A stretch of DNA of 64,000 bases from an uncultured delta proteobacterium (GCA_963770975.1 CAVYRM010000001.1:127792-191791); one strand, 5' to 3'. Shown: positions 9,657 to 38,760, counted from the stretch's first letter. Notes: generated from the letters alone by a model not told the origin. Made by a program: numbers and translations.

Positions 9657-9672
9657 GACCGAGGAGCGCGAC

Positions 9673-10296: not shown

Positions 10297-10580
10297 ACCT
10301 CTCCGATGTCATCAAGCGGCCGTTGATCACCGAGAAGGCGACCACTCTGAAAGCGGTCTCCAACTCGGTGCTGTTCGCCGTGGACACCCGGGCCAACAAG
10401 AAAGAAGTCCGTGAAGCCGTGGAGAAGATGTTCAAGGTGAAGGTCGAGGATGTCCGGACGATGACCGTCGCCGGCAAGGTGAAGCGGCGCGGGAGGACGA
10501 TCGGACTTCGACCCGGATGGAAGAAGGCCGTGGTCACGTTGAAGGCGGGCGAGAAGATCGAGTTTTTCGAAGGCGTCTGA
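10293..10580 (+). CDS. rplW: 50S ribosomal protein L23
   Basis: L23 family. Its ATG overlaps the rplD stop. Confidence 0.95.
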
Positions 10581-10620
10581 CGGGCGCGGGGAAGGCGCCT
10601 TTCCTTAAGGAGACACAGCG

Positions 10621-23500: not shown

Positions 23501-23524
23501 GCACCGAGCCAGCGAGGATGACCT

Positions 23525-24076
23525 ATGCGCCACGCGATTGACCACAGGAAACTGGGAAGAAGTCCCTCACACCGGAAAGCCCTGTTGCGGAACATGATGA
23601 ACGCGCTCGTCCTCGCCGAACGGATCGAGACCACTGTTCCCAAGGCAAAGGAACTTCGAAGGATGGCCGACCGCCTGATCACCCTCGGAAAGCGGGGAAC
23701 GCTCCATTCCCGCCGCCGGGTGTTCTCCCTCCTGAGCGACAAGGAGTGCACGGACAAGGTGTTCGCCACGCTCGCCGGGCGGTTCACCGGGCGCGCCGGC
23801 GGATACACGCGGATCGTCCGGACCGGGTACCGCGCCGGGGACGGGGCGGAAATGGCGATCATCGAATACCTGCCCGTCGAGGAGAAGAAGGCCGGCCGGA
23901 AGGGGAAGAAGAAAACCGCGTCGAAGAAGGAGCCGGCGAAAACCGCCGCGAAGAAGGAAGCGAAGGGGAGCATCGCGTCGCCCGGCAGGAAGAGAAAGGA
24001 AAGCGCCCCGAAAGAGGCGAAGCCGAGGGCGACGAGAACGAAAACGCAGAAAACGCCGGAGGGCGGCCAGGGATAA
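23525..24076 (+). CDS. rplQ: 50S ribosomal protein L17 with a ~60 aa Lys/Ala/Glu-rich C-terminal extension
   Basis: [24 protein letters not shown]... is the L17 core over ~120 aa. It is followed by [27 protein letters not shown].... Confidence 0.95.
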
Positions 24077-24108
24077 TTCGGACCGACGACCCGATTCCAT
24101 ATGCATTC

Positions 24109-24140
24109 GACAACGGCCCTTCGGGGCCGTTGTCGTTTTC
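24109..24140 (+). terminator. rho-independent terminator after rplQ
   Basis: GACAACGGCCC-TTCG-GGGCCGTTGTC is a perfect GC-rich hairpin followed by GTTTTC. Confidence 0.7.
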
Positions 24141-24164
24141 GGGCCCCGGCGCGGACGAATCCGC

Positions 24165-24212
24165 TTGACGCTCCCCGGGGCCCGGGATACTATGAAAATG
24201 AATTTCATAATC
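24165..24212 (+). promoter_or_regulatory. fur/feoB promoter with an overlapping Fur box
   Basis: TTGACG at 24165-24170, a 17-nt spacer, then TACTAT at 24188-24193. GAAAATGAATTTCATAATC at 24194-24212 matches the GATAATGATAATCATTATC consensus at 14 of 19 positions. Confidence 0.55.
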
Positions 24213-24216
24213 ATAA

Positions 24217-24684
24217 TTGGAGCGGCCCCCCGCCTTGAAGCATCTTCTCGGACGCATCGATCGTGAAATCCTGGACGCCGGCGGGAAAAGGAGCCGGAGC
24301 CGGTCCGTGGTGATGGAGCGTTTCTTCGGATCGCGCGAACACGTCACCGTGGAGGAGCTCGCCCGCTCCGTGAGGAAGAAGCACCCGGGGGTGGGGACCG
24401 TGACGGTTTACCGCACCCTGAAACTCCTGGAACGGATGGGTTACGCGAAGGAACTGGATTTCGGCGAGGGCGTGAAACGGTACGAAAGCAACCTCGCGTC
24501 GCATCATGACCACCTCGTCTGCAGGAAGTGCGGCACGGTCATCGAGTTCGAGAACGCGAACATCGAAAAGCTCCAGGATTCCGTCACGCGGCAGCACGGC
24601 TTCCACCCCACGGCCCACCGCCTGGAAATCTACGGGTTCTGCCGCCGATGCACCCCCGGGGAAGGCACGGGGGGCGCCGGATGA
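24217..24684 (+). CDS. fur: Fur-family transcriptional regulator (probable ferric uptake regulator)
   Basis: HHDHLVCRKCGTVIEF and the C-terminal CxxC match the Fur family. It sits in front of feoB. Confidence 0.85.
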   Translation: MERPPALKHLLGRIDREILDAGGKRSRSRSVVMERFFGSREHVTVEELARSVRKKHPGVGTVTVYRTLKLLERMGYAKELDFGEGVKRYESNLASHHDHLVCRKCGTVIEFENANIEKLQDSVTRQHGFHPTAHRLEIYGFCRRCTPGEGTGGAG

Positions 24685-26651
24685 AAACCGCCTCGATCGT
24701 GGAAACCGCGCAGAACCCGGTGATCCTCGTCGGCAATCCGAACGTCGGGAAAAGCGTCGTTTTCGGCGCTCTCACGGGCAGGTACGTCAACGTCTCGAAT
24801 TACCCGGGCACGACCGTCGAGATCTCCAGGGGAGAGGCGCGCGATCGCGGCACGACCTACGAGGTGATCGACACCCCCGGCGTCTATTCGCTCCTGCCCA
24901 TGTCGGAGGACGAGCAGGTCACCCGGGATATCCTGATGCGGGAGCCCGGCGCGAAGGTCCTGCAGGTGTGCGACGCCAAGAACATGCGCCGATCGCTGAT
25001 GATCACCGTTCAACTCTCCGAGATGGGGGTCCCGCTCGTCCTGGCGGTGAACATGGCCGACGAGGCGAGGGAATGCGGGGTGATGCCGCGCCTGGAATCC
25101 CTCGAGGGCCGGCTGGGGGTACCCGCGGTCCCCACCGTGGCGGTACGGAAAAAGGGTACGGACCGTCTCCTCCCGCTCCTCGTGCATCCATCGCCCTCCA
25201 CCATCCGGATCGACTACGGGGAGAAGATCGAGGCGGCCATCGTGCGGATGGAAAGGCTGCTTCCGGAGGAAACCCCGGTCGGCAAGAGGGCGCTCGCGGT
25301 CATGCTGCTTTGCGGGGACGACTCCCTCGGACCCTGGATATCGGAGAACGTACCCGTCGCGCGCATCCGGGAAATGAACGACGTGAGGAACCGGCTGGTC
25401 GAGGAATCGGGGGAGGAGATCGTCTTCCGCGTGAACCAGGCCCGGCTCTACTGGATCGACCAGTTGCTCGAGGAACTGGGCGTGGAATCTTCCGCTCCCG
25501 CCGGGAGGAGCATCTCCACGGCGTTCGGGCGATACGCGATGGACCCGGTCTACGGGGTCCCGATCCTCGTCGGCGTTCTCTTCCTGGCCTACGAATTCGT
25601 GGGGGTGTTCGGCGCGGGGTTCCTCGTGGACCTGCTGCAGAAATCGTTCTTCGAGAAGTGGATCATTCCGTCCATCGCCGCGCTGATCGACCGGTTCCTG
25701 CCCTCGGCATTCCTGCGGGACTTCCTGGTGGGCCCCTACGGGATGATCTCCATGGCCCTTTCCTACGCGGTCGCGATCGTCCTGCCGATCGTCGGGACGT
25801 TCTTCTTCGGGTTCGGGATCCTGGAGGATTCCGGGTACCTTCCGAGGCTCGCGGTGATGGTGGACCGCCTGTTCAAGAAGATCGGGTGCAACGGCAAGGC
25901 GGTCCTCCCGATGATCCTGGGCCTGGGTTGCGACACGATGGCGACGTTGACCACGAGGATCCTCGAAACGCGGAAGGAACGGATGATCGTCACGCTGCTG
26001 CTCGCCCTGGGCGTCCCGTGCTCCGCGCAGCTGGGCGTGATCCTCGGCATGCTCTCCGACGTGGGGCCGGCGGCGACCATCACATGGCTCGCCTTGCTGG
26101 TGGGCATCATCCTGCTGGTCGGGTTCCTCGCCTCGAAAATCATCCCCGGGGACTCCTCGGACTTCATCCTCGAGATCCCGCCCATCCGGTGGCCGAAGGC
26201 GGGAAACCTTGCCGTCAAGACGATGGCGCGCATCGAGTGGTACCTGAGGGAAGCGGTCCCGCTGTTCCTCCTCGGCACGTTGATCCTGTTCGCAGCGGAC
26301 CGGCTCGGATGGCTGTCGTGGTTGCAGAAGGCGGGCGAGCCGTTGATCGTCCGGGTCCTCGATCTCCCGCCGAAGGCGATGGAGGCGTTCCTGATCGGGT
26401 TCCTCCGGCGGGACTACGGGGCCGCGGGGCTCTTCAGCATGGCGAAGGCCGGGATGCTTTCCCACCTCCAGGTGGTGGTGAGCCTGATCACCATCACGCT
26501 CTTCATTCCCTGCCTTGCGAATCTCCTCGTGATCGTGAAGGAGCACGGGGGGAAGGTCGCGGCAGGGATGGCGTTGTTCATCTTTCCCTTCGCGCTGCTG
26601 GTCGGGGCCGCCGTAAACCTCGTCGCGCGCTGGGCGGGGATCGTTTTCTGA
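24681..26651 (+). CDS. feoB: ferrous iron transporter FeoB
   Basis: N-terminal G-domain VILVGNPNVGKS..DTPG. Polytopic C-terminal half. 656 aa. Its ATG overlaps the fur stop (ATGA). Confidence 0.93.
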   Translation: MKTASIVETAQNPVILVGNPNVGKSVVFGALTGRYVNVSNYPGTTVEISRGEARDRGTTYEVIDTPGVYSLLPMSEDEQVTRDILMREPGAKVLQVCDAKNMRRSLMITVQLSEMGVPLVLAVNMADEARECGVMPRLESLEGRLGVPAVPTVAVRKKGTDRLLPLLVHPSPSTIRIDYGEKIEAAIVRMERLLPEETPVGKRALAVMLLCGDDSLGPWISENVPVARIREMNDVRNRLVEESGEEIVFRVNQARLYWIDQLLEELGVESSAPAGRSISTAFGRYAMDPVYGVPILVGVLFLAYEFVGVFGAGFLVDLLQKSFFEKWIIPSIAALIDRFLPSAFLRDFLVGPYGMISMALSYAVAIVLPIVGTFFFGFGILEDSGYLPRLAVMVDRLFKKIGCNGKAVLPMILGLGCDTMATLTTRILETRKERMIVTLLLALGVPCSAQLGVILGMLSDVGPAATITWLALLVGIILLVGFLASKIIPGDSSDFILEIPPIRWPKAGNLAVKTMARIEWYLREAVPLFLLGTLILFAADRLGWLSWLQKAGEPLIVRVLDLPPKAMEAFLIGFLRRDYGAAGLFSMAKAGMLSHLQVVVSLITITLFIPCLANLLVIVKEHGGKVAAGMALFIFPFALLVGAAVNLVARWAGIVF

Positions 26652-26854
26652 TGGCGGGAGAAACCGTGAAGATCCCGTGCCCGCTTTGCGGGTTCGAAAT
26701 CGATCCGTCGGACCGGGCCTGCCGGTCGGGATGCCCCATGGGAAAGGGATGCACCCTTGTCTGTTGCCCCAGATGTCGCTACTCTTTCCCCATGCCGGAG
26801 TCGAAGACCGTGAATTTCCTCAAGACCCTTCTCTCGAAAGGAAGCCGGAGATGA
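26651..26854 (+). CDS. small Cys-rich protein (67 aa, 8 Cys), a putative metal-binding Feo accessory of unknown function
   Basis: MAGETVKIPCPLCGFEIDPSDRACRSGCPMGKGCTLVCCPRCRYSF.... Its ATG overlaps the feoB stop (TGATG) and its stop overlaps the next gene's ATG (ATGA). It is the tail of track ORF 24506..26854. Confidence 0.55.
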   Translation: MAGETVKIPCPLCGFEIDPSDRACRSGCPMGKGCTLVCCPRCRYSFPMPESKTVNFLKTLLSKGSRR

Positions 26855-27498
26855 CCGAGCAAGGACAGGACGAGATCCTCGAACTCCTGTGGACGCTTCG
26901 GGAGGAGGGGAGGGCGACCCGGTCCGAGCTGCTTCGTTCGACGACGGAAGCAAGCCCCGAGCAGCTGCTCGAGGAGATCCACGCCGGAGGCCTTGTCGAC
27001 GCGTCCCGGGACGAGATCCTTCTCACGAAGAGCGGCGAGGACCGGGCGCGGGGGATCATCCGGCGCCACCGGCTTGCCGAGGTGCTCCTGCAGAACCTGT
27101 TCGAACTGGACAACACCCAGCTGGAACACAGCGCCTGCCAGTTCGAGCACATCCTTTCCGAGCCCGTGGTGGAGAGCGTCTGCACGTTCCTCGGGCACCC
27201 CCCCGTCTGCCCCCACGGGCGGTCCATCCCGAGGGGGGAGTGCTGCAACCGGATCCGCACCGAGATCCGCCCCCTGGTCATGCGGCTGACCGAGGCTTCC
27301 CTCGGGACGACGGTCCGGATCGTGTTCATGACCCCCAAGTCGAAAAAACGGCTCGAGAAGCTTTCCGCCCTCGGGATCGTGCCCGGAAGCCGGCTGAGGA
27401 TCCTCCAACGGACCCCGTCGTACGTCCTCCAGATCGGCCAGACCACCGTGGCCGTCGACCGGGATATCACCGATGAGATCTACGTCAAGGTATCGTAG
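26851..27498 (+). CDS. DtxR/IdeR-family metal-dependent repressor with a C-terminal FeoA/SH3-like domain
   Basis: RRHRLAEVLL...HSACQFEHILSEP is the DtxR metal-site signature. The C-terminal VRIVFMTPKSKKRLEKLSALGIVPGSRLRILQ is FeoA-like. Preferred start is MTEQGQDEILELL at 26851. Confidence 0.8.
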   Translation: MTEQGQDEILELLWTLREEGRATRSELLRSTTEASPEQLLEEIHAGGLVDASRDEILLTKSGEDRARGIIRRHRLAEVLLQNLFELDNTQLEHSACQFEHILSEPVVESVCTFLGHPPVCPHGRSIPRGECCNRIRTEIRPLVMRLTEASLGTTVRIVFMTPKSKKRLEKLSALGIVPGSRLRILQRTPSYVLQIGQTTVAVDRDITDEIYVKVS

Positions 27499-28768
27499 GG
27501 CCGTCGCGCTCTTCCTTTCCGTCTCCCTCGTCGCGGGGACCTTCACGCCGGCTCTCGCCGGTGATCCCGTCGGGACGAGGCAGCCCGCGCTCCTGCTGAA
27601 GTACGCCGCGCCGGACCTCCCGGATGCGGAGGCCCGCAAGGTGCTCGATCCCCTGGCCGGGATCCTCGGAAAGGAGCTCCAGGTCCGCTGGCTTCCCGTT
27701 CCGTCGGAAACCCCCCGGGATGGCCGGGCTCCCGGCGTTCCCCCCGTTCCCGACGACACCGCCCTGCGGCGGATCGCGGGAAAACTCACCAGGGCATCCC
27801 GGTCGATGGACAAGCTGGAGACTTCGGAAGCCGCAAGGGCGCTGGAGGAGGCCGAGAGGGAGTGCCGGTCGTACCGGTTCACGGATGCGACCAGGCCGTT
27901 TCTCGCCGAAATCTTCCTCCGCCGGTCGATCCTGCGCTTCTGGAAGGGAAAAACCTCCGAAGCGGAGGCGTTGGCTGCCCGCGCGCGGGCGATGCGCCCC
28001 GGGTTCTCCCCGGACCCTGCGATGTATTCCCCGCAATTCCTGTCCCTCTGGGAGGCCGCGAAGCGACGCCCCGTGCCGGAGGCGGAACTCCTGGTCCAGT
28101 CCCTCCCTTCCGGCGCGGAAATCTTCATCGACGGGGAGCGGCAGGGGGTCACCCCCTCGCGCGTCAGGATACGGAAGTACGCCCCGCTGCGGGTCCGGGT
28201 CTCCCACCCCGGTTACCGGGACGAGGAAAGGACCGGCCAGTGGCTTCCAGGGGATACGGAGATCCTCGAATTCACCCTGTCGGGCGACCGGGTGGCCCGC
28301 CTCGGAGACCTCCTGTCGCGGGCACCCCGCGAGAAAGGCGCCGGAACCGGCCCTCTGCTGGAAGAGCTCTCCAAGGCGGCGGGAACGGGTCGAGTGGCCG
28401 TATTGACGCTGGAAAAGGATGGAAACGGGGGAGGGTGCCTCGCGCGCCTGTACGGCCATCGGACGGGCGGACGGGACCTGGCCCTTCTCGGGGAGAAGGT
28501 CGTGGCCGGGGGGGAGGAAGCCGCGGAGGTATCCGGGTCCTGGGCGGCGAACGCGCTTGCAGCCGACGGATGGCCGCGTGCGGAACGCGTCGAAAGTCCG
28601 TGGTACTATAGTGCCTGGTTTTGGCTGGGGGTAGCATCGGTTGCGGGATTGGCCGTCGCCCTGGGGGGGGGAGGCGGCGGAGACGGAGGAGGAGGGACCG
28701 GCGGAGGGGGCACCGGCGGAGGAGGAACCGGCGGCGCCACGGACGGTACCGTCGCAGTGAATTTCTAA
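27473..28768 (+). CDS. secreted/membrane PEGA-domain protein with a C-terminal TM helix and a Gly-rich (GGGGT)n tail
   Basis: Signal peptide VALFLSVSLVAGTFTPALAG. PEGA-like SLPSGAEIFIDGERQGVTPSRVRIRKYAPLRVRVSHPGY. TM helix WFWLGVASVAGLAVAL, then GGGGGGDGGGGTGGGGTGGGGTGGATDG. Confidence 0.6.
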   Translation: MRSTSRYRRAVALFLSVSLVAGTFTPALAGDPVGTRQPALLLKYAAPDLPDAEARKVLDPLAGILGKELQVRWLPVPSETPRDGRAPGVPPVPDDTALRRIAGKLTRASRSMDKLETSEAARALEEAERECRSYRFTDATRPFLAEIFLRRSILRFWKGKTSEAEALAARARAMRPGFSPDPAMYSPQFLSLWEAAKRRPVPEAELLVQSLPSGAEIFIDGERQGVTPSRVRIRKYAPLRVRVSHPGYRDEERTGQWLPGDTEILEFTLSGDRVARLGDLLSRAPREKGAGTGPLLEELSKAAGTGRVAVLTLEKDGNGGGCLARLYGHRTGGRDLALLGEKVVAGGEEAAEVSGSWAANALAADGWPRAERVESPWYYSAWFWLGVASVAGLAVALGGGGGGDGGGGTGGGGTGGGGTGGATDGTVAVNF

Positions 28769-28799
28769 CCTCGGGAAAAGGCAGGGGCCGCATCCCCCC

Positions 28800-30140
28800 A
28801 TGAGCTGGATCCTCACCATTCTCCTGTTGCTCGTCTCCGTGGAAACCTTCGCGGCGGACGCCGAAACCGTGATCCGGGGTCTCGGGAACACGAAGATCAT
28901 CCGTTCGAACGAACCTCCCCACACGATCCTAAACGAAGCCTGCGTCGCGTGCCATCCCAAGGAAAAATTCGAGTACTGGCTTCTCATCTACAAGGGAAAG
29001 GCGCCTTCGCTGACCGTTGACCGGCCGGAAGGCAGCGATCAACGGGCCGGCACCGAAGCAGCCCCCGTTCGCGGGAAGACCAACCGGTACAATTCCCACG
29101 ACTCCCTCGCCTGCAATCTGTGCCACTTGCAGAACCCCACGGAAGCGGCCCCCAAGTTCATCGTGGACGTCGCCGACCTGTGCCGGCTGTGCCATCCGGG
29201 CACGGGGATGCACCACCTCCCCGATCCCGCCGGCCTGGCGCTGGTGAAGAAGGCGATCCTGGGCAGGAAACTGCCCGGAAGGGACGGGGAGCCGCTGTGC
29301 ACGACGTGTCACAAGACCCACGAATCCACCTACACGATGCGCCAGGTATACGCCGAGACGCTCTGGGAAGGGAAGGTTCCCAACCCCCACGGGAGCAGGA
29401 TGCTCTGTTTCGCCTGCCACACAGGACGGATCAAGGAAGGACAGGAAATCCGCCTCACGACGGGAAGGGACAACATCAAGCTCTGCAACGCGTGCCACAC
29501 GAAGCCGGGGGTGAAAAAGAGCCCGCACATCGTGGACGCGACCTCCTCCGAGGGGACGTGGAGGATGGATTACCTCGGGTATCCCCTCAACCAGGGGAAG
29601 CTCGTCTGCTCCACCTGCCACGACGAGGTCTCCCACGGGAAACGGGACCCCGCGAACCCGAAATTCCTTCGGGGCGGCCCGTACGCGGACCCGGACAAGT
29701 TCTGCTATCGTTGTCACCTGGAGGACAAGGATGTCTACAACAACCCCCACCGCCAGGTCGACGGGTTCGGGAGAATCCGGGCGGAGTCCTGCCTCTTCTG
29801 CCACCGCAACAACCCGGATGCGGGAAAGGACGTGCCGGCGAACCGCGAGATGGTGGCCGAGGACCGGGTGGTGTGCTCGAACTGCCACCAGCTGCGCGCG
29901 CACCCCGGCGTCGATCACCTGATTCTCCTGAAGGGGGAGAAGGCCGCCCGGAAGGAAGAGTACGAACGGAGACAGCAGATTCGCCTGCCCCTTGCCGGAG
30001 ATGGGAAGATCACGTGCAGCACATGCCACAACCCTCACGCGAAGGGGGTTCTGAAGGGGGAGAGCGGCGTGGGCGGCGGCTCGAAATGGCGCGTGCCGGA
30101 CTTCAGGGAGGTCTGCGCGCCTTGCCACGGTAGATACTGA
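28800..30140 (+). CDS. dodecaheme c-type cytochrome, periplasmic or outer
   Basis: Signal peptide MSWILTILLLLVSVETFAA. 12 CxxCH motifs. Confidence 0.88.
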   Translation: MSWILTILLLLVSVETFAADAETVIRGLGNTKIIRSNEPPHTILNEACVACHPKEKFEYWLLIYKGKAPSLTVDRPEGSDQRAGTEAAPVRGKTNRYNSHDSLACNLCHLQNPTEAAPKFIVDVADLCRLCHPGTGMHHLPDPAGLALVKKAILGRKLPGRDGEPLCTTCHKTHESTYTMRQVYAETLWEGKVPNPHGSRMLCFACHTGRIKEGQEIRLTTGRDNIKLCNACHTKPGVKKSPHIVDATSSEGTWRMDYLGYPLNQGKLVCSTCHDEVSHGKRDPANPKFLRGGPYADPDKFCYRCHLEDKDVYNNPHRQVDGFGRIRAESCLFCHRNNPDAGKDVPANREMVAEDRVVCSNCHQLRAHPGVDHLILLKGEKAARKEEYERRQQIRLPLAGDGKITCSTCHNPHAKGVLKGESGVGGGSKWRVPDFREVCAPCHGRY

Positions 30141-30164
30141 AGAACGACCCGACCGGAGGAAGCG

Positions 30165-30830
30165 ATGATCGACCTGTTCGTGAAAGGGGGATTCGCGATG
30201 TACCCCCTGCTGATCCTATCCGTGGTGACGCTCGCGATCGCCATCGAGCGGACGGTGTACCTGCGCAAGGCGCGGATCAACACGGGGGAGTTCATGGAAA
30301 CCATCAACAGCTTCCTCTCCAGGAACGCGCTGGAGGAAGCGCACCGGTACTGCGATTCCACTTCGGGTCCGATCTCCCGGATCATCAAGGCGGGACTGAA
30401 GAACCAGAAACGAGGCCGGGAAGACGTGATCCGGTCCATCGAGGACGCCGGCGCGATCGAGGTCGCCCAGCTGGAGCGGGGGATCCTCATCATACAGACC
30501 ATATCGAAGCTCGCCCCGCTCATCGGGCTGTTCGGCACCGTGACCGGGATGATACGCTCTTTCCAGGCGATCGGAGGCGCCGGCGGGGAGAATCCCAGGC
30601 TGGTCGCCGCGGGGATCGGCGAGGCGCTGGTCGCCACCGCGGCCGGGCTGGTCGTCGCCATACCGGCGTACTTCCTGGCGTTCTATTTCATGAACCGGGT
30701 GAGCAAGTTCATCCTGGAGATGCAGAAGAGCTCGATCCAGTTCCTCGACGGCCTGGGCGAGCTCGAGGAGATGATCGCGGAGCGCACCCAGCGGTTCGAC
30801 ACGGTGGGAGGAGACTACCTTGAAGTTTAA
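30165..30830 (+). CDS. exbB: MotA/TolQ/ExbB proton-channel protein
   Basis: 3 TM helices. The family signature region LIGLFGTVTGMIRSF is present. Confidence 0.85.
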   Translation: MIDLFVKGGFAMYPLLILSVVTLAIAIERTVYLRKARINTGEFMETINSFLSRNALEEAHRYCDSTSGPISRIIKAGLKNQKRGREDVIRSIEDAGAIEVAQLERGILIIQTISKLAPLIGLFGTVTGMIRSFQAIGGAGGENPRLVAAGIGEALVATAAGLVVAIPAYFLAFYFMNRVSKFILEMQKSSIQFLDGLGELEEMIAERTQRFDTVGGDYLEV

Positions 30831-31221
30831 GAGAAGGCTCCAGGGAGACGAGGAGGGGATCCCGATCACCAACCTCGTGGACGTGCTCTTTCTGCTGATC
30901 GTCTTCTTCATGATGTCCACGGTGTTGAGTTTCGACCGCGGATTCGGGGTGAAGCTTCCGGAAAGCGGGGCCGCCGGGACGATCTCGAACAAGGGCGTCA
31001 GCGTGCTGATCTCCCGCGAGGGGAAGGTGTACGTGGACGGGAACGAGACGCCGATCGACCGCGTGGGAGAGGTGGTCAAGGCGCGGCAGCGGACGGCCGG
31101 GAACAACGTCGTGCTGAAAAGCGACCAGGACACGCGGTTCCAGGCGATCGCCGACGTGATGGACCGGCTGCTCGCCGTCGGGATCGGGGACCTCTCCCTC
31201 CCCGTCCTGGAAAGAAGGTAG
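30820..31221 (+). CDS. exbD: ExbD/TolR biopolymer transport protein
   Basis: Single N-terminal TM helix ITNLVDVLFLLIVFFMM plus a periplasmic domain. Its start overlaps the exbB end. Confidence 0.85.
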   Translation: MKFKRRLQGDEEGIPITNLVDVLFLLIVFFMMSTVLSFDRGFGVKLPESGAAGTISNKGVSVLISREGKVYVDGNETPIDRVGEVVKARQRTAGNNVVLKSDQDTRFQAIADVMDRLLAVGIGDLSLPVLERR

Positions 31222-31234
31222 GAGAGGCAACGCC

Positions 31235-32110
31235 TTGGAAGGGAAGGGCGTACGGAGGGTATTGCAGCCGGCCTTGTACCTCGGCATCGCGATCCTCGTC
31301 CACGCCCTCTTATTCCTCGTCCCGTCCGGGACCGGATCGAAACCCGCGGACGGGACCACCCGGGGGATGCGGATCCGCGCCGTCGCGGCCCCCGGAAGGG
31401 CTCCTTCGCCGCCGGTCACACCCTCTCCCGCCCGCTTGGCGCCGCAGACCGCGGAGATACCACCGAAGTTCGGCACCGGTCCGAAGGGTCCCCAGGGATC
31501 CGAACCGGCATCCGGATCCGGGGGAACCCCGGGCGGGGGTGGCGGTCCACCGGTGGACGGCGCGGCGACGCCGGGTGCCCCGCCGGTCGGAGAGTACGCG
31601 GCGTACATCGCCCGCTTGCGGTCCGAAGGGGTGCAGGGATGGGCCCGGGACAGCGCGAGCCGGATGCGCCAGGGATGGAAAGGCACGGGGAAAGGCGGAG
31701 GGGGGTTGGGGATCGGGTATGGAGCCGGCGCGGGAGCCGGAGCGGGTGGGCGCGGAGGGGGAAGCGGCCGCAGCGGCGGGGGTGGAACGGGTGACGGCTA
31801 CCTCGACTCGCGGGTGCGGATGGTGGTGACCAGCTACCCTCCGACCACGATCGAAAGACGGTTCACGATGGTGGCGTACCCGGACCTGAAGGTGAAGAAG
31901 CACGAGTACACCGCCGGGTGGTGGAACGTGTTTATCCAGATGCGGACCGATGCCTCGGGGAAGGTGACGCAAACCCGGGTTCTCCGGCCGGAAACGGACG
32001 GACCGCTGGAGAGGATCTTCGTGGACCAGGTGCGCAAGGAGATCGGCCGGTGGACCTTCGATCGCGCGGCCGCCGAAATCAACGTCGACGTGCGGTTCTA
32101 TGTCGAATAG
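31235..32110 (+). CDS. tonB: TonB-like energy transducer
   Basis: N-terminal TM anchor ALYLGIAILVHALLFLV. Pro/Gly-rich spacer. The C-terminal ~80 aa domain resembles the TonB C-terminal domain only weakly. Confidence 0.6.
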   Translation: MEGKGVRRVLQPALYLGIAILVHALLFLVPSGTGSKPADGTTRGMRIRAVAAPGRAPSPPVTPSPARLAPQTAEIPPKFGTGPKGPQGSEPASGSGGTPGGGGGPPVDGAATPGAPPVGEYAAYIARLRSEGVQGWARDSASRMRQGWKGTGKGGGGLGIGYGAGAGAGAGGRGGGSGRSGGGGTGDGYLDSRVRMVVTSYPPTTIERRFTMVAYPDLKVKKHEYTAGWWNVFIQMRTDASGKVTQTRVLRPETDGPLERIFVDQVRKEIGRWTFDRAAAEINVDVRFYVE

Positions 32111-32867
32111 GTCGGCAACCGCCGTTTTTCGCCGGGTTTGCTTTCCTTTCGCCGTCATCGGGGTGCTGGTTTCCGGCGCATCCCTCGCATCCGACCAGGA
32201 AGGGTGCCTCCTTTGCCACCGTCTGTCCCTCCGGGTGGTGGTCGACGGGACGGAAAGGAACCTGAAGGTAGACGATCGAGCCGCCTGGATCCACGAGGCC
32301 CTCTTCTGCTCGGATTGCCACCCGGATGCCAGGAACGCCCCGCATCCGGCACCTCCGGGCGCCGCACAGTGCATCGGGGAGTGCCATGGAGGCGGGGAAG
32401 GCGCGATCTCATCGCATCGGAGAGCCGCCTTCGGCGGGTTGACCGAAACCCACAGGCGGGTCAGCCCGGGGAAAGGCGCCTGTTTGCCGTGCCACAGGGC
32501 TTCGGACGCGAAAACGGGACATGCGGCGACGGAACGACGGTGCGACGGGTGCCATCCCGGGGAGCGGGCCGCCGCGTCGAGAGGGCCGCACGCCCGCCTG
32601 GCGGATTCCCCCGGATTCTGTTCCGGGTGCCATCCGCCGCATCCCGCGTTGACCGGAAAGGGGGATCCGACGATCCAGGCCTGTGCCGCGTCCGGCTGCC
32701 ATGCCCGGGTGTCCCCCGCGATGAAGGCGTTGGCCGACCATCGAACATCGCGCGGGGCGGGCAGCGGAATCGGGAAGGCGGCGCTTTTCTTCCTCCTGGC
32801 CTGTGCGGGATGGCTCGCCGGATCGGCATTGTCCCCGAAGCCGGGTCGCGGGGAGGGAGGAACATGA
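32100..32867 (+). CDS. heptaheme c-type cytochrome with a C-terminal membrane anchor (CbcA-like)
   Basis: Signal peptide. Five CxxCH motifs plus CIGECH (CX3CH) and CAASGCH (CX4CH). C-terminal hydrophobic AALFFLLACAGWLAG. The ATG at 32100 overlaps the tonB stop. Confidence 0.8.
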   Translation: MSNRSATAVFRRVCFPFAVIGVLVSGASLASDQEGCLLCHRLSLRVVVDGTERNLKVDDRAAWIHEALFCSDCHPDARNAPHPAPPGAAQCIGECHGGGEGAISSHRRAAFGGLTETHRRVSPGKGACLPCHRASDAKTGHAATERRCDGCHPGERAAASRGPHARLADSPGFCSGCHPPHPALTGKGDPTIQACAASGCHARVSPAMKALADHRTSRGAGSGIGKAALFFLLACAGWLAGSALSPKPGRGEGGT

Positions 32868-33802
32868 ACTGGATCCAGCCTCCCGAAACGGTCCGGAGAT
32901 TCACGATCCACCAGATCCTGCAGCACGGATTCGCGGTGGCGCTGTGGGTCCTTCTCCTCGGGAGCGCGATCGCGGCCGGGTGGGGAATCTCCGGCGTGCG
33001 TTCCCTCCATGCGGTCGTCGGAATCGCGGGCGGAGCCTTCATCGTGTACCATGCGCTGACACTGGCGGCGATCGGGATCCTCCTCGACATGCCTGCCGAG
33101 AGAATCGCTTTCCTTCCCTGGGGGCGGGACTGGGATGCGATCCGCCGCCGGAAGGGGAGCACCGAAGACCCGGGTAAATACGTTCCGGCGGAGAAAGGGG
33201 ATTACCTCGCGATCCTGGCATGGAGCCTGTTCGCGGTCCTGTCCGGGATCCTTCTTCGATGGCCCTCCTTCTTCGGCGTCCCGGGATCCGGCGCGTACGA
33301 CTGGATCCGCGCCGCGCACGCCGGGTTCGGCGCCTCGCTCACGGTCCACATCCTCGTCGTCCACCTTCCCGGCCGCTGGACGCACGCTTCCCCCGCGTTC
33401 CGACGCGCCGTCCTTTCCGGCACCGTTCCGCTATCGGAGGCGGAAAAGAGGGGGGGGTGGATCCGCGACCTCGTTGCGCTCGGAGTGCTCGTCCCCGCTC
33501 CCGAGGAAACCGTCACGGCGGAGGAGAAGGAATCCGGGACGGTCAGGGAGTTGCTGGAGCGGGGAAACCGCCTTGTCCGCGAAGGGATGTACACGGAAGC
33601 GTGCGATGCCTACGAGGCGGCGCTTCGCCTGTTGCCGGACTATTCGCAGGCGCGGTTCAACTTCGCGGTCGCGCTGTTCCGGGGAGGGCGCAGGGAGGAA
33701 GCGACGACGCAGTTGAGGATATTCCTCGAAAAGGATCCCTTCAACCCGATGGTGGAGAAGGCGAGGGGAATGATCGAGGAGATCGAGGGGTCCGCGGAAT
33801 GA
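32864..33802 (+). CDS. diheme b-type cytochrome membrane subunit (FdnI/HyaC/CbcB-like) fused to a C-terminal TPR domain
   Basis: VRRFTIHQILQHGFAVALWV is the cytochrome b RFxxxxRxxH signature. 4 TM helices carry conserved His. The C-terminal ~100 aa is TPR-like (YTEACDAYEAALRLLPDYSQARFNFAVALFRGG). The ATG at 32864 is the preferred start. Confidence 0.75.
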   Translation: MNWIQPPETVRRFTIHQILQHGFAVALWVLLLGSAIAAGWGISGVRSLHAVVGIAGGAFIVYHALTLAAIGILLDMPAERIAFLPWGRDWDAIRRRKGSTEDPGKYVPAEKGDYLAILAWSLFAVLSGILLRWPSFFGVPGSGAYDWIRAAHAGFGASLTVHILVVHLPGRWTHASPAFRRAVLSGTVPLSEAEKRGGWIRDLVALGVLVPAPEETVTAEEKESGTVRELLERGNRLVREGMYTEACDAYEAALRLLPDYSQARFNFAVALFRGGRREEATTQLRIFLEKDPFNPMVEKARGMIEEIEGSAE

Positions 33803-34344
33803 AGCGAATCGCCGAACGCATCGGGCCGGCCGCGGCCGTCGTCGCGACACTGCTCCTCTTCTGGACCGTGGCCAGGGGAGGAAGCGGGCACGTCAGGAAG
33901 GTCCCTTCCCGTACGGCATCGGCTTCTTTTCACGGCGACGGCACGATCCGCGAGGTTCCCCCGGATCCCGACTGCGCCGGACCGAAATGCCATGCCGCAT
34001 CCTCCCATCGGGCGTCGGGGCCGCGGAGCGCTTTCCTCAACCAGCACGCGGAAATCGTCTCCTGCCTGGGCTGCCACGGCCGGGAGCCGGAACGCGGATG
34101 GGGCGTGCCGAAAGATGGAGGAAAGGGTGGGATTCGCCTGGTCTACTCTCCAAGCCCGGAGCCCGGGAAGCAACACGCCGGTATCGGTCCACCGGCCTCC
34201 TGCACCCGGTGCCATTCGCCTGAAGGCCGGCGAGCGATCCTCTCCGCCGGGGTGAAGGGACTGGGAGAAGGGTTCGATTCGCCGATCGCTCTTCGGATGA
34301 TCGAGGGGGGAGGACGAAAGTGGGTCCCGGACGATATGCGATAA
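33799..34344 (+). CDS. small triheme c-type cytochrome
   Basis: Signal peptide. CAGPKCH (CX4CH), CLGCH and CTRCH. The ATG overlaps the preceding stop (ATGA). Confidence 0.7.
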   Translation: MKRIAERIGPAAAVVATLLLFWTVARGGSGHVRKVPSRTASASFHGDGTIREVPPDPDCAGPKCHAASSHRASGPRSAFLNQHAEIVSCLGCHGREPERGWGVPKDGGKGGIRLVYSPSPEPGKQHAGIGPPASCTRCHSPEGRRAILSAGVKGLGEGFDSPIALRMIEGGGRKWVPDDMR

Positions 34345-35210
34345 CGGCGTTCCTCCTCTTTCTATGCGCGGCGTTGCCGACCGGCTCGGCACGCGGCGCG
34401 GAGGGGGGGAGCGATGCGATCTGGATACGCCAGGCCCAGTCCCGGCAGCTCTCGACCCCGTACGACGTGGCCGTGGACCGGAAAGGGGTCGTCTTCCTGC
34501 TCGAATCCGGTGCAAGGACCATATCGATCTTCTCCCCGCGGGGAGAGTTCCTCCGCGAGATCGCCGGAAAGGGAGGATGGAAGGATCCCTCGGCGATCGC
34601 GATCGGATCGTCCGGCTCGATTTTCCTCGCGGACGGCGTCGGATCCAGGGTATTGGAGATCGATCTCTCCGGAAAGGTGAAGAGGGAGTACGTCGTAGGC
34701 GGAAACGCGAGAGTGACGGGGGTTTCGGTTCTTGGAGACGCGGTCTACTGCGTGGACAACCGGAACCACCGGGTCGCGGTATTCCGGAAGCCCGGCGTCC
34801 CGCCGGAATTCTGGGGAAAGCGGGGGGAAGGCCCGGGGCAGTTCCAATCCCCGTTCCGGATCGCCGTCGATTCTTCCGGACGCGTATTCGTCACGGACGT
34901 CCTGAACGCGCGCGTGCAGTGGTTCACCGCGTTCGGCCGACACCTCGGGACCCTGAAACGATTCGGGGCGGCGGAGGGAAAGATCTTCCGCCCCACGGGG
35001 ATCGCCCTGGACCTTCGAGGCCGGATCTGGATCGGGGACAGCTACACCGGCCTGGTGCAGCTTTTCGGGGAAGGCGGCGAATTCGCGAAGACGCTTCGCG
35101 CGAAGGGACGCCCCGTCGTCTTCGGCGACCCCGTCGGGCTGGCCGTGGCGCCGGGCGGCATCTGGGTTGCGGACCAGCGGGAGAATCGCCTGGTCCTGTT
35201 CCGGGACTGA
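34320..35210 (+). CDS. secreted NHL-repeat six-bladed beta-propeller protein
   Basis: Signal peptide ITAFLLFLCAALPTGSA. Repeated motifs YDVAVD/IAIGSSGSIFLAD/VYCVDNRNHRVAVF/IAVDSSGRVFVTD/IALDLRGRIWIGD/LAVAPGGIWVAD are characteristic of NHL repeats. Confidence 0.8.
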   Translation: MGPGRYAITAFLLFLCAALPTGSARGAEGGSDAIWIRQAQSRQLSTPYDVAVDRKGVVFLLESGARTISIFSPRGEFLREIAGKGGWKDPSAIAIGSSGSIFLADGVGSRVLEIDLSGKVKREYVVGGNARVTGVSVLGDAVYCVDNRNHRVAVFRKPGVPPEFWGKRGEGPGQFQSPFRIAVDSSGRVFVTDVLNARVQWFTAFGRHLGTLKRFGAAEGKIFRPTGIALDLRGRIWIGDSYTGLVQLFGEGGEFAKTLRAKGRPVVFGDPVGLAVAPGGIWVADQRENRLVLFRD

Positions 35211-35229
35211 AACGGGAAGGAGCGCTGCG

Positions 35230-35436
35230 ATGGGAAACATGAAATGGGAATACGGCCAGATCTTCGTTCGTCAACCGGATGTGTTCGGAGGGCTTCCGAA
35301 AAACGGGCTCGAAATGGAGAAGATGAACCGCGCGGGCACGGAAGGGTGGGAGATGGTCGGGGTGGTCCCCTTCACCATCCCTTCGGGGGAAGTACGCGGT
35401 GCGTTCATCCTCTTCAAACGGGAGATCGCCGGCTGA
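35230..35436 (+). CDS. small DUF4177-like protein
   Basis: MGNMKWEYGQIFVRQ...GWEMVGVVP...AFILFKRE, 68 aa. The start at 35230 is preferred over the track ORF's 35167. Confidence 0.55.
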   Translation: MGNMKWEYGQIFVRQPDVFGGLPKNGLEMEKMNRAGTEGWEMVGVVPFTIPSGEVRGAFILFKREIAG

Positions 35437-35455
35437 ACCGGACGGCGGACATCGA

Positions 35456-38217
35456 TTGAAACGGTTCATCGTCCCCCTCGTACTCCTCCTCGCCTTCCTT
35501 GCGGAAGGACGCGGGAATGCAAGGCCTGCCTTCGACCAGGAGAAATGCTCCCTTTGCCACATCAAGGAGAGCGTGTTCTTCGACTCCTCCTTCCTGCCGC
35601 CGGACGGGTTGAAATCCTTCGGGGAAGAGCGTCTTTGCGGAAGCTGCCACAACGGTTCCGTCCAGGACAGCCGGGCCGAACTGTGGAGGGGAACGCAGCA
35701 TCCGGCCGCAGGGTCGGGAAAAGGGAGGTGCACGGGGTGCCACTCTCCGCATGCCAAGGGGGGGTGGGGAGCTCTCGCGGGGAACGGGGCGTCGTTGAGA
35801 AAGGGGGGGAACGCCCTCTGCGGAGGGTGCCATGCGGCACAGTCCGGGAACGGCGGACTCCTGCACGGAAAGCAGATCGGGAATGCCGGATGCAAGGAGT
35901 GTCACGTCGCCCACGGCGGAACCGGGAAGGCCCTGCTTCGCGATACCGGGAGCACGCTCTGCCGGAGATGCCACGGATCGATCAATCCGGAGAAGGACGG
36001 CGGCCATCCCCTCGACGGCAGGAAGGTGCGGGCCGGTGAATCCGCGGCGCTGCCCGGCTGCCTGGCGTGCCATCCCGTCCACGGGAAAAAGGGCGATACG
36101 GTGGACCTCGCCGACCGGTGCGGCTCCTGCCACGCATTCGGGGGAAAAGGGAAGGGGGCCGAGACCCGGTCGCACTCCGGCGTGGGAAAGTGCACCACGT
36201 GCCATACGTTCCACTCGCGGACCGGGGATGGCGGCCGTGCATTCCGCGGAAAGGATATCCGGTCGGATGCGTTGTGCCGGTCGTGCCACCCTTCCTTCAA
36301 CGCCGCGGATGTCCGGGCGGGACGGGCTGCCGGCACGCACGTCACGATCTCCGGGGAGGGACGCCGCGACATCTGCGGCCGTTGCCACCAACTGCACGGC
36401 GCGCCCGCCGGGACACCGCTGCTTCGCTCGCGAAAGTCCTACTTCTGCCTGGACTGCCACGACAGCCAGAACACGATCCGGGAGAGCAGCGGCATCTCGC
36501 TGGCGCATCCCGTGTTCGAGAAGGTCACGAAAGGGCGGCTGGCCGACGTGGTCCGGGAGAAAAAGGTTGCGGTCGGCCCGGCCGGAGAGATCATCTGCGC
36601 CACCTGCCACAAGGTGCACGGAGCGGAAAAGGAGACGCCGCTGCTCGCTTCCGGGGCCGACAAGGGGGAGAGCTGTTCCTGGTGTCACCCGGGCATGCGT
36701 GGGAAATCCCACGGAAAGACCGGCGGCTGGACGTCTCCCGGATGCGATGGGTGCCACCCGGTTCACGGACGAAAGAGTGCGGACGGCGACCCGTGGGGCC
36801 TGCTCTGCCGAAAATGCCATCCGCGGTCTTCCGCGCACCAGGCCGGAATCGGCGATCGCGTCACGGGCAGGGCGATGGACCTCCCGGAGTTCGATCCGCG
36901 GGGAAGAACGGCCGCGTACGGTGCCATCACATGTCCGACGTGTCACGACCCCCACGGGGACAGCGCCCTGCCGAAACGCCTGCGGAAACAGTACCGGCCG
37001 AACGGCTTCCTCTGCACCACCTGCCACCGGTCCCAGGACACGGTCGTCCTCACCCCCCACGATCTGCGGGGCATCGCGGGGGATGGCGTCTGCGAACCTT
37101 GCCACAAACCCCATGCGGGGGAATCTCCGTGGATGTGGGGATTGGCGAGGGGGGCAGGCGAAACGGGGGAGGAATCGTGCCGGGCCTGCCACCTCGCGGG
37201 AGAAGGGAAGGGACTGGGAATGCCGGTCCCCCGGGGGGGGCACCCGACGAACGTCCTTGCTTCCCGCCCCCTTCCGGACCGGTTTCCGAGGATCGGACCC
37301 GAAGGTCGTTTCTCCGAAACGGGGGTCATCTCCTGCTCCACATGCCACGTCGTGCACGGCCGCGGAGTCATGCCGGTGGGCCAGGGAGTCGGAAAACTCC
37401 TGCGAGCTTCGGATGCTTCCCGGAGCAACCCCGTCCGCCATCGGCGATCTGCGCGGAATGCCACCCGGGGAAGGACCGCCGGCACGGGGCGGCGGACTGT
37501 CTCGCCTGTCATCCTCCGCACAGGGATGAAAAGGCGGGAGCGGCCTGCCTGAAATGCCACCCCGGCCAGAAGGGCGCACTGGTCGAACGACACGGGAAAA
37601 CGGGGGCCGCCTGCGGTTCCTGCCACAAGTTGCACGCCAAGGATGCGGAGGCGGGAAATTCCGGGGAACGCTGCGTCCGTTGCCATTCCACCACCCGGAA
37701 GATCCTGAAAACCCCCCATGCGGCGCTGGGAGCGAACGCCTGCGACGGGTGCCACCCGGCCCACAAGGAAATCCAGGTTCACACCTTCCGCCCGAAGCTG
37801 GGCGAGGAGATATTTCCACCGGACCTGCTGTGCCTGCGATGCCATCGCGAAGGAAGAACGGCCCCGGCGCCGAAGTGGCCGAACCATCCGGCGCGTACGC
37901 AGGAGGTGCCGACGAACTACGGCGCGAAAGTCATCCTGGAAACCCCGGTCACGATGGTGGGTCGGTACAAGGAGGGTTCACGCCCGATGTTCCCGCTGTT
38001 CGACGCGGCAGGGAAGCCGGCGCTCTCCGGCACGATGGGGTGCCTGACCTGCCACGATCCCCATGCCGGGGGCGCACGGAACGACAAACCTGCGGCGAAT
38101 GCCTACCTTCGGGATGCGAGCTCGGTTTTTCTGGCCGAAATTTGTGGTTCCTGCCACAAGGAGAATACGGTGGAAAGGGTCCGGAAATTCCACGTCATGC
38201 CGAGAGTGCCGCGATAA
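35456..38217 (+). CDS. giant ~30-heme c-type cytochrome, apparently frameshifted at about 37400-37450
   Basis: TTG at 35456 gives the signal peptide MKRFIVPLVLLLAFLAEGRGNA. 21 CxxCH motifs lie in the frame of ORF 35399..37552. 9 more lie in the frame of ORF 36067..38217. Adding one C to the C4 run at 37429-37432 joins them (..SNPRPPSAICAECHPG..). Confidence 0.7.
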
Positions 38218-38273
38218 AGGAACATTTCCTGCGAACGTTCGACCGCATTTTTCGATATGATGTTGGACACGAC

Positions 38274-38657
38274 ATGGGACGGATTGGCGACAGCAAAGAG
38301 GTGACGATCCCCCTGAAGAACCCGGGACGGGGGAAGCGGAGGATACCGCTGTTCATCGCCGCCGGTCTCGTCTTTGCGGCGGTGTTCATCTCCCTCTTCC
38401 GGGACATGGGCGTCGTGGACAGTTGGAAGCTCGATCGAACGGAACGGCAGCTGCGCGAGGAGGTCGTGAAGCTTCGGCAGGAAAACGCGATTTTGAAACA
38501 AACGGTCGAGGACCTGCGCAGCAACCCTGCGGTCATCGAACAGGAAGCCCGGCGGATCGGTCTCATAAAGGAGGGGGAGAACGTGATCGTCGTTCCCCCG
38601 AAACCGGATGCCTCCTCCAAATCGCCCGTAAAACCCACTCCAACGAAGCGTCCATAG
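38274..38657 (+). CDS. ftsB: septum formation initiator FtsB/DivIC-family protein
   Basis: TM helix IPLFIAAGLVFAAVFISLF, then the coiled coil LDRTERQLREEVVKLRQENAILKQTVEDLRSNPAVIEQEARR. 127 aa. Confidence 0.75.
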   Translation: MGRIGDSKEVTIPLKNPGRGKRRIPLFIAAGLVFAAVFISLFRDMGVVDSWKLDRTERQLREEVVKLRQENAILKQTVEDLRSNPAVIEQEARRIGLIKEGENVIVVPPKPDASSKSPVKPTPTKRP

Positions 38658-38694
38658 GGCACAGGAGCGTCTTCCTACGCCGTGCCGGGGCACG

Positions 38695-38723
38695 TTGACA
38701 CCTCTGCCGGATAGGGGATAAAC
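38695..38723 (+). promoter_or_regulatory. candidate sigma70 promoter for argS
   Basis: TTGACA at 38695-38700, a 17-nt spacer, then ATAAAC at 38718-38723, which is a weak -10. Confidence 0.3.
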
Positions 38724-38760
38724 TGCCTACTTTACGAATATTTATCCATCGAGGGGGCAG

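Follow-up and report, generated by a model that had tools for sequence, protein, structure and literature searches.

The DFE clusters of Desulfovibrio ferrophilus, which combine an NHL beta-propeller with a multihaem cytochrome, are candidate clusters for extracellular electron transfer (EET). In Candidatus Tenderia, the uetA-J genes encode an NHL propeller together with large multihaem cytochromes, and their order is conserved within the lineage (10.1101/2022.05.06.490989). The CbcBA complex of Geobacter consists of a dihaem cytochrome b with four transmembrane (TM) helices and a 7-haem cytochrome c with a C-terminal TM anchor; CbcB is described as providing three histidine ligands, with CbcA adding the fourth, and cbcBA is sigma-54 dependent (10.1101/2021.04.15.440034). 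In this paper, we analyse a gene cluster in which parts similar to these systems are embedded with an ExbB-ExbD-TonB-like motor. It is located in a 64-kb window, i.e., the whole 64,000-nucleotide stretch of DNA from an uncultured delta proteobacterium (GCA_963770975.1 CAVYRM010000001.1:127792-191791). We propose with moderate confidence that the cluster is part of a two-module composite region, of which Module B (28800-38217) represents one envelope-spanning electron-transfer machine.

For MBNT15/Candidatus Deferrimicrobiota, iron respiration via many multihaem cytochromes was proposed from genomes alone (PMC9386147); that publication mentions neither this cluster nor TonB, ExbB, FeoB or NHL. 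The preliminary description of the present locus did not recognise this combination of genes as a described system, and this agrees with our search of the literature (full text, with most subscription journals outside its scope): no operon of cytochrome genes enclosing an exbBD/TonB-like module was found there, and no paper linking DUF4177 to cytochromes.

The ten-gene core and its surroundings in different lineages

The window represents housekeeping DNA of about 64% guanine plus cytosine (GC) and includes, in this order, rpoC, the ribosomal-protein superoperon, rpoA, rplQ, a 15-gene block, ftsB, argS, trp genes, lepA and carAB. The block (24217-38217) is situated between rplQ (23525-24076) and ftsB (38274-38657), with all its genes on the plus strand. 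Seventeen genes had been claimed for this co-directional run, and gene coordinates bear out the run itself while reducing the number to 15. Gaps of 31 nucleotides or less and many ATGA/TGATG overlaps had been reported correctly: the spacing between consecutive genes is -4, -1, -4, -26, +31, +24, -11, +13, -11, -4, -4, -25, +19 and +19 nucleotides, which gives nine start/stop overlaps and a widest internal gap of 31 nucleotides. Within the core, the starts overlap in the pairs exbB/exbD, TonB-like/cyc7, cyc7/cytb and cytb/cyc3. The last ten genes of the block comprise this core (Module B):

28800-30140, plus strand: core gene 1, cyc12, exported 12-haem c-type cytochrome; 446 amino acids, 12 CxxCH motifs
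30165-30830, plus strand: core gene 2, ExbB/TolQ-type proton-channel subunit; 221 amino acids, PF01618 E = 4e-33, 114 bits
30820-31221, plus strand: core gene 3, ExbD/TolR-type subunit; 133 amino acids, PF02472 E = 7e-22, 78 bits
31235-32110, plus strand: core gene 4, TonB/TolA-like protein; 291 amino acids, N-terminal TM helix, Pro/Gly-rich linker, C-terminal domain of about 95 amino acids
32100-32867, plus strand: core gene 5, cyc7, 7-haem c-type cytochrome; 255 amino acids, five CxxCH plus CIGECH and CAASGCH
32864-33802, plus strand: core gene 6, cytb/TPR, four-helix FdnI-like dihaem cytochrome b with a C-terminal TPR domain; 312 amino acids
33799-34344, plus strand: core gene 7, cyc3, membrane-anchored 3-haem c-type cytochrome; 181 amino acids, CAGPKCH, CLGCH and CTRCH
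34320-35210, plus strand: core gene 8, exported six-bladed beta-propeller with NHL repeats; 296 amino acids, PF01436 E = 3e-20
35230-35436, plus strand: core gene 9, DUF4177-like protein; 68 amino acids, no signal peptide, PF13783 23.4 bits against a cut-off of 25
35456-38217, plus strand: core gene 10, giant 30-haem c-type cytochrome; 920 amino acids once repaired, TTG start

To compare the cluster between lineages, we used 78 related loci obtained by four routes: look-ups of exact proteins, a scan of species-representative genomes with a cytb/TPR alignment, a metagenome scan with the 68-amino-acid protein, and tblastn of all window proteins against every locus. In 22 loci of the Deferrimicrobia type, the entire array from rpoA-rplQ to ftsB-argS is present wherever the coverage suffices, down to 42% identity of cytochrome b. 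This array consists of rpoA, rplQ, fur, feoB, a Cys-rich open reading frame (ORF), dtxR, the PEGA gene, the ten core genes, ftsB and argS. Since the adjacency includes the unrelated rplQ, ftsB and argS, it represents a lineage synteny, which by itself is uninformative on function.

In at least eight loci from other lineages (L018, L019, L023, L024, L026, L029, L072 and L077), the core order cyc12, exbB, exbD, TonB-like gene, cyc7, cytb/TPR, cyc3, NHL gene, DUF4177-like gene and giant cytochrome gene is kept down to about 30% protein identity and at GC contents of 46-73% (46% in L018, 69% in L019, 53% in L023, 70% in L024 and 70% in L026). L018 keeps this order up to the NHL gene, the last two genes being absent. 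One of these loci, L024, is labelled Deferrisomatales, which is a different phylum in the NCBI taxonomy. The flanks of the distant loci are all different, being represented by AhpC and MlaC, by LOG and HEAT-repeat proteins, by radical-SAM and VTT-domain proteins, or by a sigma-54 two-component pair and plsX. All eight loci are free of fur, feoB, the Cys-rich ORF, dtxR and the PEGA gene, and seven of them (L018, L019, L023, L024, L029, L072 and L077) have at least 2.2 kb of sequence upstream of the 12-haem gene. In metagenomes, all 51 loci retrieved by the 68-amino-acid protein show the NHL gene and the giant cytochrome, with the motor and the other cytochromes present where upstream sequence exists.

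Because the core keeps its order amid unrelated flanks without the Fur, Feo, DtxR and PEGA genes, we conclude that the ten-gene core is a conserved system; the Fur/Feo/DtxR/PEGA genes are, judging by gene order, its lineage-specific neighbour. The preliminary description had joined both groups into one unit, and the gene-neighbourhood comparison divides this proposal. For the cytochromes, the b/c module and the ExbB-ExbD-TonB-like genes the unit stands, since their order is kept in every related locus, while for the Feo/Fur half the linkage fails in the other lineages, which is the outcome that this description had itself named as refuting it.

We rejected the possibility that the block is a mobile island. 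No transfer RNA (tRNA) gene was found in the 64-kb window, no flanking repeats within 23000-40000 (the repeats seen there are haem-motif codons) and no integrase among the cluster proteins scanned, in agreement with the earlier reading; the GC content of the block is similar to that of the remainder of the window, and its place between housekeeping genes is fixed.

Most Deferrimicrobia-type loci carry additional genes around the core. A DAO-like flavoprotein of the geranylgeranyl-reductase family is encoded between the giant cytochrome and ftsB in L002 (15436-16716), L004, L005, L007, L015, L025, L041 and L043, with a weak match in L035, and proteins of the GAF-GGDEF and cold-shock types are encoded between ftsB and argS. 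The window and its closest relative L008 are devoid of the flavoprotein, GGDEF and cold-shock genes; other close relatives, such as L001 and L014, have no flavoprotein gene and keep the GGDEF gene. L015 and P0141 have the Deferrimicrobia-type array, but public records assign them to Gemmatimonadota and Candidatus Methylomirabilis, probably through binning errors.

Cytochromes, motor and accessory proteins of the core

Four c-type cytochromes of the core carry 12 + 7 + 3 + 30 = 52 haem motifs, 45 of them in the three exported cytochromes other than Cyc7, in accordance with the figure of about 52 c-type haem sites given earlier. Most of the domain labels assigned before are also confirmed by Pfam and NCBIfam: above the Pfam cut-offs we detected FUR, FeoB_N/Gate/FeoB_C, Fe_dep_repr_C with FeoA, PEGA, MotA_ExbB, ExbD, NHL and several multihaem families. 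Two labels, “TonB” and “cytochrome b”, are invisible to sequence profiles in the window proteins.

The product of cytb/TPR has the four TM helices and the candidate ligands of a dihaem b-type cytochrome (PF01292 superfamily), and its TPR domain is predicted to be cytoplasmic. Together with cyc7, whose C-terminal TM anchor and haem-motif positions are conserved in five lineages, it resembles CbcBA of G. sulfurreducens (GSU0593/GSU0594), in which a four-helix dihaem cytochrome b also adjoins a 7-haem cytochrome c with a C-terminal anchor. In L023 (13305-15047), the 7-haem cytochrome is fused to cytb/TPR into a protein of 580 amino acids with 5 + 2 haem motifs, which is similar to CbcL. The earlier assignment of the pair as CbcA/CbcB-like is appropriate for the architecture only; no Geobacter protein was found among the named matches of cytb/TPR (139) and cyc12 (64), all of which have names of metagenome-assembled genomes (MAGs). 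The 139 homologous clusters of cytb/TPR all come from MAGs, and the few named ones are labelled Candidatus Deferrimicrobiaceae, Desulfobacteria or “Deltaproteobacteria”. The origin of the window is therefore most likely the MBNT15/Candidatus Deferrimicrobiota lineage.

The core differs from CbcBA in that its cytochrome b holds all four or five candidate haem-ligand histidines itself and has a C-terminal TPR domain, and in that the genes of the b/c pair, unlike cbcBA, share their cluster with exbB, exbD and a TonB-like gene. From FdnI of E. coli (PDB 1kqg chain C) the cytochrome b differs by its low identity (19%), by the extra TPR domain and by its partner, which is a multihaem cytochrome c, not a molybdo/FeS dehydrogenase. 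In L018, cytochrome b and TPR are separate ORFs with one stop codon between them (regions 267-3228 and 9635-10699 were noted in this locus). In the same locus, genes for a sigma-54 response regulator and a histidine kinase with HAMP domain lie divergently upstream, which recalls the sigma-54 dependence of cbcBA, and yceD-plsX is found at the downstream end. Nothing convincing was found when sigma-54 (-24/-12) promoters were sought in the window cluster and seven loci.

Among the other cytochromes, Cyc12 matches the Pfam families Cytochrome_C7 and Paired_CXXCH and the MtrC/MtrF II-IV domains; its orthologues are 32-37% identical, and cyc12 is the first gene of the cluster in other lineages. A 12-haem homologue with 26% identity, P0183, marks the edge of the family: its unrelated context has no exbBD, so it is placed outside the system. 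With the porin-cytochrome conduits (MtrCAB, PioAB/MtoAB, and Pcc/Ext of Geobacter) the core shares a periplasmic multihaem cytochrome weakly similar to the DmsE/MtrA decahaem family and to the MtrC/MtrF domains, and the presence of a very large second cytochrome. However, the decahaem model requires 192 bits and gives 46 here, and neither a porin-like domain nor a long beta-barrel candidate was found among the 15 genes or in the cores of other lineages. Having no porin, the core fails the defining test of such conduits. The mature N-terminus of Cyc12 (window 28860-28900) contains a strand-like motif upstream of the first haem that is conserved across lineages (TKIIRSNEPPH, FLIIRSDEKEH, FHVVRPSGEAH and STMLRSDDSRH); the TonB-like domain possibly docks at this strand. 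Orthologues of cyc3 occupy the matching position in L018, L023, L024 and L026.

The giant cytochrome had been described as carrying about 30 haems, and its 30 motifs bear this out, but in the window they are not contained in one ORF: the gene is read in one frame from 35456 to about 37416 (ORF stop at 37552; 21 motifs) and in the next frame onward to 38217 (9 motifs). One base is missing at 37415/37416 as compared to the 95%-identical L008, whose ORF is intact, and a 1-nucleotide insertion at this point restores a 30-haem protein of 920 amino acids, which is 96% identical to the L008 product. In relatives, the giant cytochrome is a single ORF of 920-1195 amino acids with 29-30 CxxCH motifs; those of 920-939 amino acids and 30 motifs align to the window in two frames, which join at about 37405-37441. 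An assembly error could explain the deletion, or else a genuine inactivating mutation or polymorphism; as regards a generally error-prone assembly, tuf, the sole other long gene inspected, is intact.

The motor genes follow the order of ExbB-ExbD-TonB and TolQ-TolR-TolA: a channel subunit, a protein of the ExbD/TolR type, and a single-pass protein that has a histidine in its TM segment and, behind a linker rich in Pro, a C-terminal domain with the fold of TonB/TolA. ExbB and ExbD have the usual channel motifs, and the transmembrane Asp of ExbD is present (…NLVDVLFLL…). Their NCBIfam scores remain under the equivalog cut-offs (106/221 bits for TolQ, 87/206 for ExbB, 51/127 for TolR and 37/123 for ExbD) and are slightly higher for the TolQ/TolR than for the ExbB/ExbD models.

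The gene earlier named tonB fits this name by its place after exbB and exbD in every locus, by the His H23, which is invariant in the hydrophobic N-terminal segment, by the Pro/Gly/Lys-rich linkers found in all lineages, and by the predicted alpha-beta fold of its C-terminal domain, which is TonB/TolA-like. The name does not hold at the level of sequence profiles: neither the whole protein nor its C-terminal domain could be identified by searches of Pfam, NCBIfam and PDB profiles, the full-length profile matched low-complexity linkers only, Pfam TonB_C (PF03544) had no match at E <= 10 in ten TonB-like orthologues, and no TonB occurred among the PDB profile matches. Faint NCBIfam matches were obtained to the AgmX/PglI tail (E = 0.09) and to the TonB-like LIC_10042 (E = 0.055). 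When representative proteins (1.84 billion) were searched, the profile of the C-terminal domain gave 63 matches, 57 of them below 1e-10, and no match at the weak level expected of canonical TonBs. Judged by these profile searches, the TonB-like proteins are a small, discrete family. P0222, one of its most divergent members on a long contig and the one boundary case whose context was checked, sits within a complete core.

Two variants of the TonB-like protein were observed. In L019 (7955-9181), it has 408 amino acids, with an insertion of about 120 amino acids between the linker and the C-terminal domain that consists of two similar beta-rich segments without a Pfam match. P0278 is a protein of 2076 amino acids ending in the TonB-like C-terminal domain (residues 1979-2076).

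Apart from the C-terminal domain, which matches no TonB_C or TolA sequence model, the core differs from the Ton and Tol systems by its cytochrome neighbours and by the lack of a receptor, Pal or TolB. No TonB-dependent receptor or plug domain was detected among the cluster proteins scanned or the genes called in related loci, and a partner encoded elsewhere is possible; genes for Pal or a TolB-type protein are absent from the core. With its NHL-type propeller and without an OmpA/Pal domain, the cluster also differs from Tol-Pal; the NHL gene is present in every related locus covering its position. Being exported and encoded beside large multihaem cytochromes, this propeller recalls the Uet cluster. 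Unlike the core, Uet has the beta-barrel UetC, a cupredoxin and a prolyl isomerase, while ExbBD/TonB and the cytochrome b are absent from Uet.

The accessory proteins allow another explanation, in which the motor, NHL, TPR and DUF4177-like parts would be a biogenesis machine that exports, folds or anchors the 30-haem cytochrome and stays outside the electron path. TonB-dependent secretion has a precedent in Oar/PopC of Myxococcus, and the osc cluster of Geobacter assembles OmcS filaments. The accessory genes are interleaved with the cytochrome genes and are the best conserved of the core: identity across lineages is 55-67% for the DUF4177-like protein, which is the highest in the core, and mostly 46-53% for ExbB, which reaches 70-71% in L056 and L072; the cytochromes have 25-37%. 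Elsewhere, structural roles have been proposed for NHL propellers located beside multihaem cytochromes (Uet cluster, 10.1101/2022.05.06.490989). However, L018 has the motor, the propeller and TPR but neither the giant cytochrome nor the DUF4177-like gene, so the motor cannot serve the giant cytochrome alone; moreover, the core contains no secretin, ABC exporter or beta-barrel. We therefore consider a machine devoted to biogenesis unlikely and prefer an electron-transfer system to which the motor belongs.

Module A and a possible regulatory link to iron

The region upstream of the core includes the end of the ribosomal operon, the promoter and five genes:

24111-24140, plus strand: intrinsic terminator hairpin of rplQ, CAACGGCCC-TTCG-GGGCCGTTG with a T run behind it; the ribosomal operon ends here
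24165-24193, plus strand: sigma-70-like promoter TTGACG-17-TACTAT, found by a scan for promoter-like sites
24194-24212, plus strand: Fur-box-like operator GAAAATGAATTTCATAATC, a 19-mer abutting the promoter
24217-24684, plus strand: fur; 155 amino acids from TTG, PF01475 E = 6e-35
24681-26651, plus strand: feoB, Fe(II) transporter; 656 amino acids, FeoB_N, FeoB_Cyto, Gate and FeoB_C
26651-26854, plus strand: Cys-rich ORF; 67 amino acids, 10 Cys, no Pfam or NCBIfam match
26851-27498, plus strand: DtxR/IdeR/MntR-type metalloregulator with a C-terminal FeoA/SH3-like domain; 215 amino acids, PF02742 and PF04023
27473-28768, plus strand: exported PEGA-domain protein; 431 amino acids, PF08308

Module A covers 24165-27498 and, with the PEGA gene, extends to 28768. 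It is an iron-homeostasis operon controlled by a Fur box, and Ca. Deferrimicrobia is the only lineage in which it precedes the cytochromes. Its promoter follows the rplQ terminator hairpin, which is also kept in L001, L009, L011, L013 and L014. The operator GAAAATGAATTTCATAATC matches the Fur consensus in 14/19 positions (15/19 on the other strand), and a recognisable copy with 13-16/19 matches directly follows the -10 element in each of the 12 related loci examined, the remaining spacer having diverged. The Fur box claimed earlier at the cluster start is thus well founded, and its conservation amid diverged sequence is, from these alignments, a phylogenetic footprint. The arrangement typical of a Fur regulon, an operator overlapping the promoter, was found for the fur-feoB promoter only.

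The true start of fur is possibly further downstream than the TTG, and the best NCBIfam matches of its product are Fur equivalogs, scoring under their cut-offs. The ATGA start of feoB overlaps the fur stop. FeoB is complete, with the G domain and Gate/FeoB_C; no stand-alone FeoA was found, the FeoA/SH3 domain occurring solely as the C-terminus of the DtxR-like regulator, and FeoC had no match in the Pfam/NCBIfam scans of the cluster. That regulator has three domains and matches the MntR/DtxR equivalogs weakly (NCBIfam). The Cys-rich ORF is conserved beside feoB in every locus of the Deferrimicrobia type, and tblastn gave 59-82% identity for L001-L017; it is translationally coupled to both feoB and dtxR and may encode a metal-binding or FeoC-like accessory protein. 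The PEGA gene is restricted to the Deferrimicrobia-type loci, being absent in the eight loci of other lineages, and is therefore placed outside the conserved core. The C-terminus of the PEGA protein (window 28590-28768) consists of a hydrophobic helix, a 40-residue Gly-rich tail and TVAVNF, which is similar to a beta-signal or a strand-donor tail.

One possibility, raised in the preliminary description, is that the genes of the block, here 15, all form one iron-regulated system for reductive iron acquisition, in which Fur would derepress the operon under iron limitation, the cytochromes would reduce extracellular or chelated Fe(III), and FeoB would import Fe(II). This proposal agrees with the place of Module A, which precedes Module B wherever a Deferrimicrobia-type locus is covered sufficiently, with the 26-nucleotide overlap of dtxR and the PEGA gene, with the conserved Fur box, and with the fact that the Fur-box promoter is the only promoter-like site before argS and no clear terminator follows it inside the block. 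Nevertheless, the core occurs without fur, feoB, dtxR and PEGA in at least eight loci of other lineages, and in the four such loci scanned (L018, L019, L023 and L024) the sequence upstream of cyc12 contains no Fur box that reaches 13/19 matches; the earlier inclusion of Fur, FeoB and the DtxR-like regulator in the same system is thereby not supported. The Deferrimicrobia adjacency, as said above, extends to rplQ, ftsB and argS, and in some relatives dtxR and PEGA are separated by a gap of 16-116 nucleotides. It would also be physiologically awkward for a cell to induce about 52 haem irons' worth of protein under iron starvation. For these reasons, we regard the acquisition system as rather improbable and retain the electron-transfer reading of the core, with a lineage-specific and unproven link to iron uptake suggested by the neighbouring genes.

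Proposed mechanism and its significance

From motifs and gene order, we infer that the core functions as an electron-transfer chain. That this is a single electron-transfer system including the motor is probable, and the extension of this view to an envelope-spanning machine is the proposal made at the outset. The FdnI-like dihaem cytochrome b and the C-terminally anchored 7-haem cytochrome would exchange electrons with the quinone pool, and electrons would then pass via the 3-haem, 12-haem and 30-haem cytochromes through the periplasm and beyond. The ExbB-ExbD channel with its partner of TonB/TolA fold would use the proton motive force for a mechanical action on an outer component. Its target could be one of the core's own products (the NHL propeller, Cyc12 or the giant cytochrome) or else an outer-membrane protein encoded elsewhere. 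This action could consist in gating, positioning or exporting the cytochrome wire. Perhaps a pull of the TonB-like protein on the N-terminal strand of Cyc12 or on the NHL propeller inserts, extends or gates the 30-haem wire across the envelope.

The separate parts of this mechanism are not equally credible. Only tentatively do we suggest that the energy of the motor goes into the working conduit and not into its assembly, and it is doubtful whether the TonB-like protein couples the proton motive force directly to the multihaem cytochrome chain, instead of nutrient import. A role in reducing Fe(III) minerals agrees with the proposed ecology of the lineage.

Several observations weigh against our interpretation. 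The core is not strictly invariant, since L018 is devoid of the DUF4177-like gene and the giant cytochrome. It contains no gene for an outer-membrane beta-barrel, a TonB-dependent receptor or a lipoprotein, and all of its carriers are uncultured MAGs. In addition, only two sigma-70-like sites occur in 23400-39000, the Fur-box promoter and the other one 5' of argS, and neither a sigma-70-like promoter nor a convincing terminator was found in 24193-38217. Because dtxR overlaps the PEGA gene in the window by 26 nucleotides and no internal promoter or terminator was found, read-through between the modules is possible; they may be co-transcribed in Deferrimicrobia, which would give the core a regulatory tie to iron there. 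A divergent Tol-Pal-like system of envelope maintenance, whose TolQ, TolR, TolA, propeller and TPR parts would merely share an operon with respiratory cytochromes, seems very improbable to us.

The core is built of parts of known kinds, namely oxidoreductases similar to CbcBA/CbcL, NHL clusters similar to Uet, and motors of the Ton/Tol type, while their combination is apparently undescribed. Known electron routes of the envelope, such as Mtr, Pcc/Ext and cytochrome filaments, are regarded as passive wires. A Ton/Tol-type motor inside an operon leading from quinol to multihaem cytochromes, in an arrangement conserved between lineages, suggests that the proton motive force is spent by some bacteria on building, positioning or gating such a wire. 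If this is true, the core would represent the first mechanically energised conduit for EET and a new class of clients for Ton/Tol-type motors. The finding is of potential importance for specialists in these two fields.

The link to Fur and FeoB, though eye-catching, is not to be counted into the mechanism. Sediments and groundwater are the sources of the carriers, MBNT15/Deferrimicrobia and uncultured groups related to them, which are predicted iron reducers whose specific conduit has not been pinned down (PMC9386147). For these bacteria, the ten-gene core provides a concrete marker and a testable candidate conduit.

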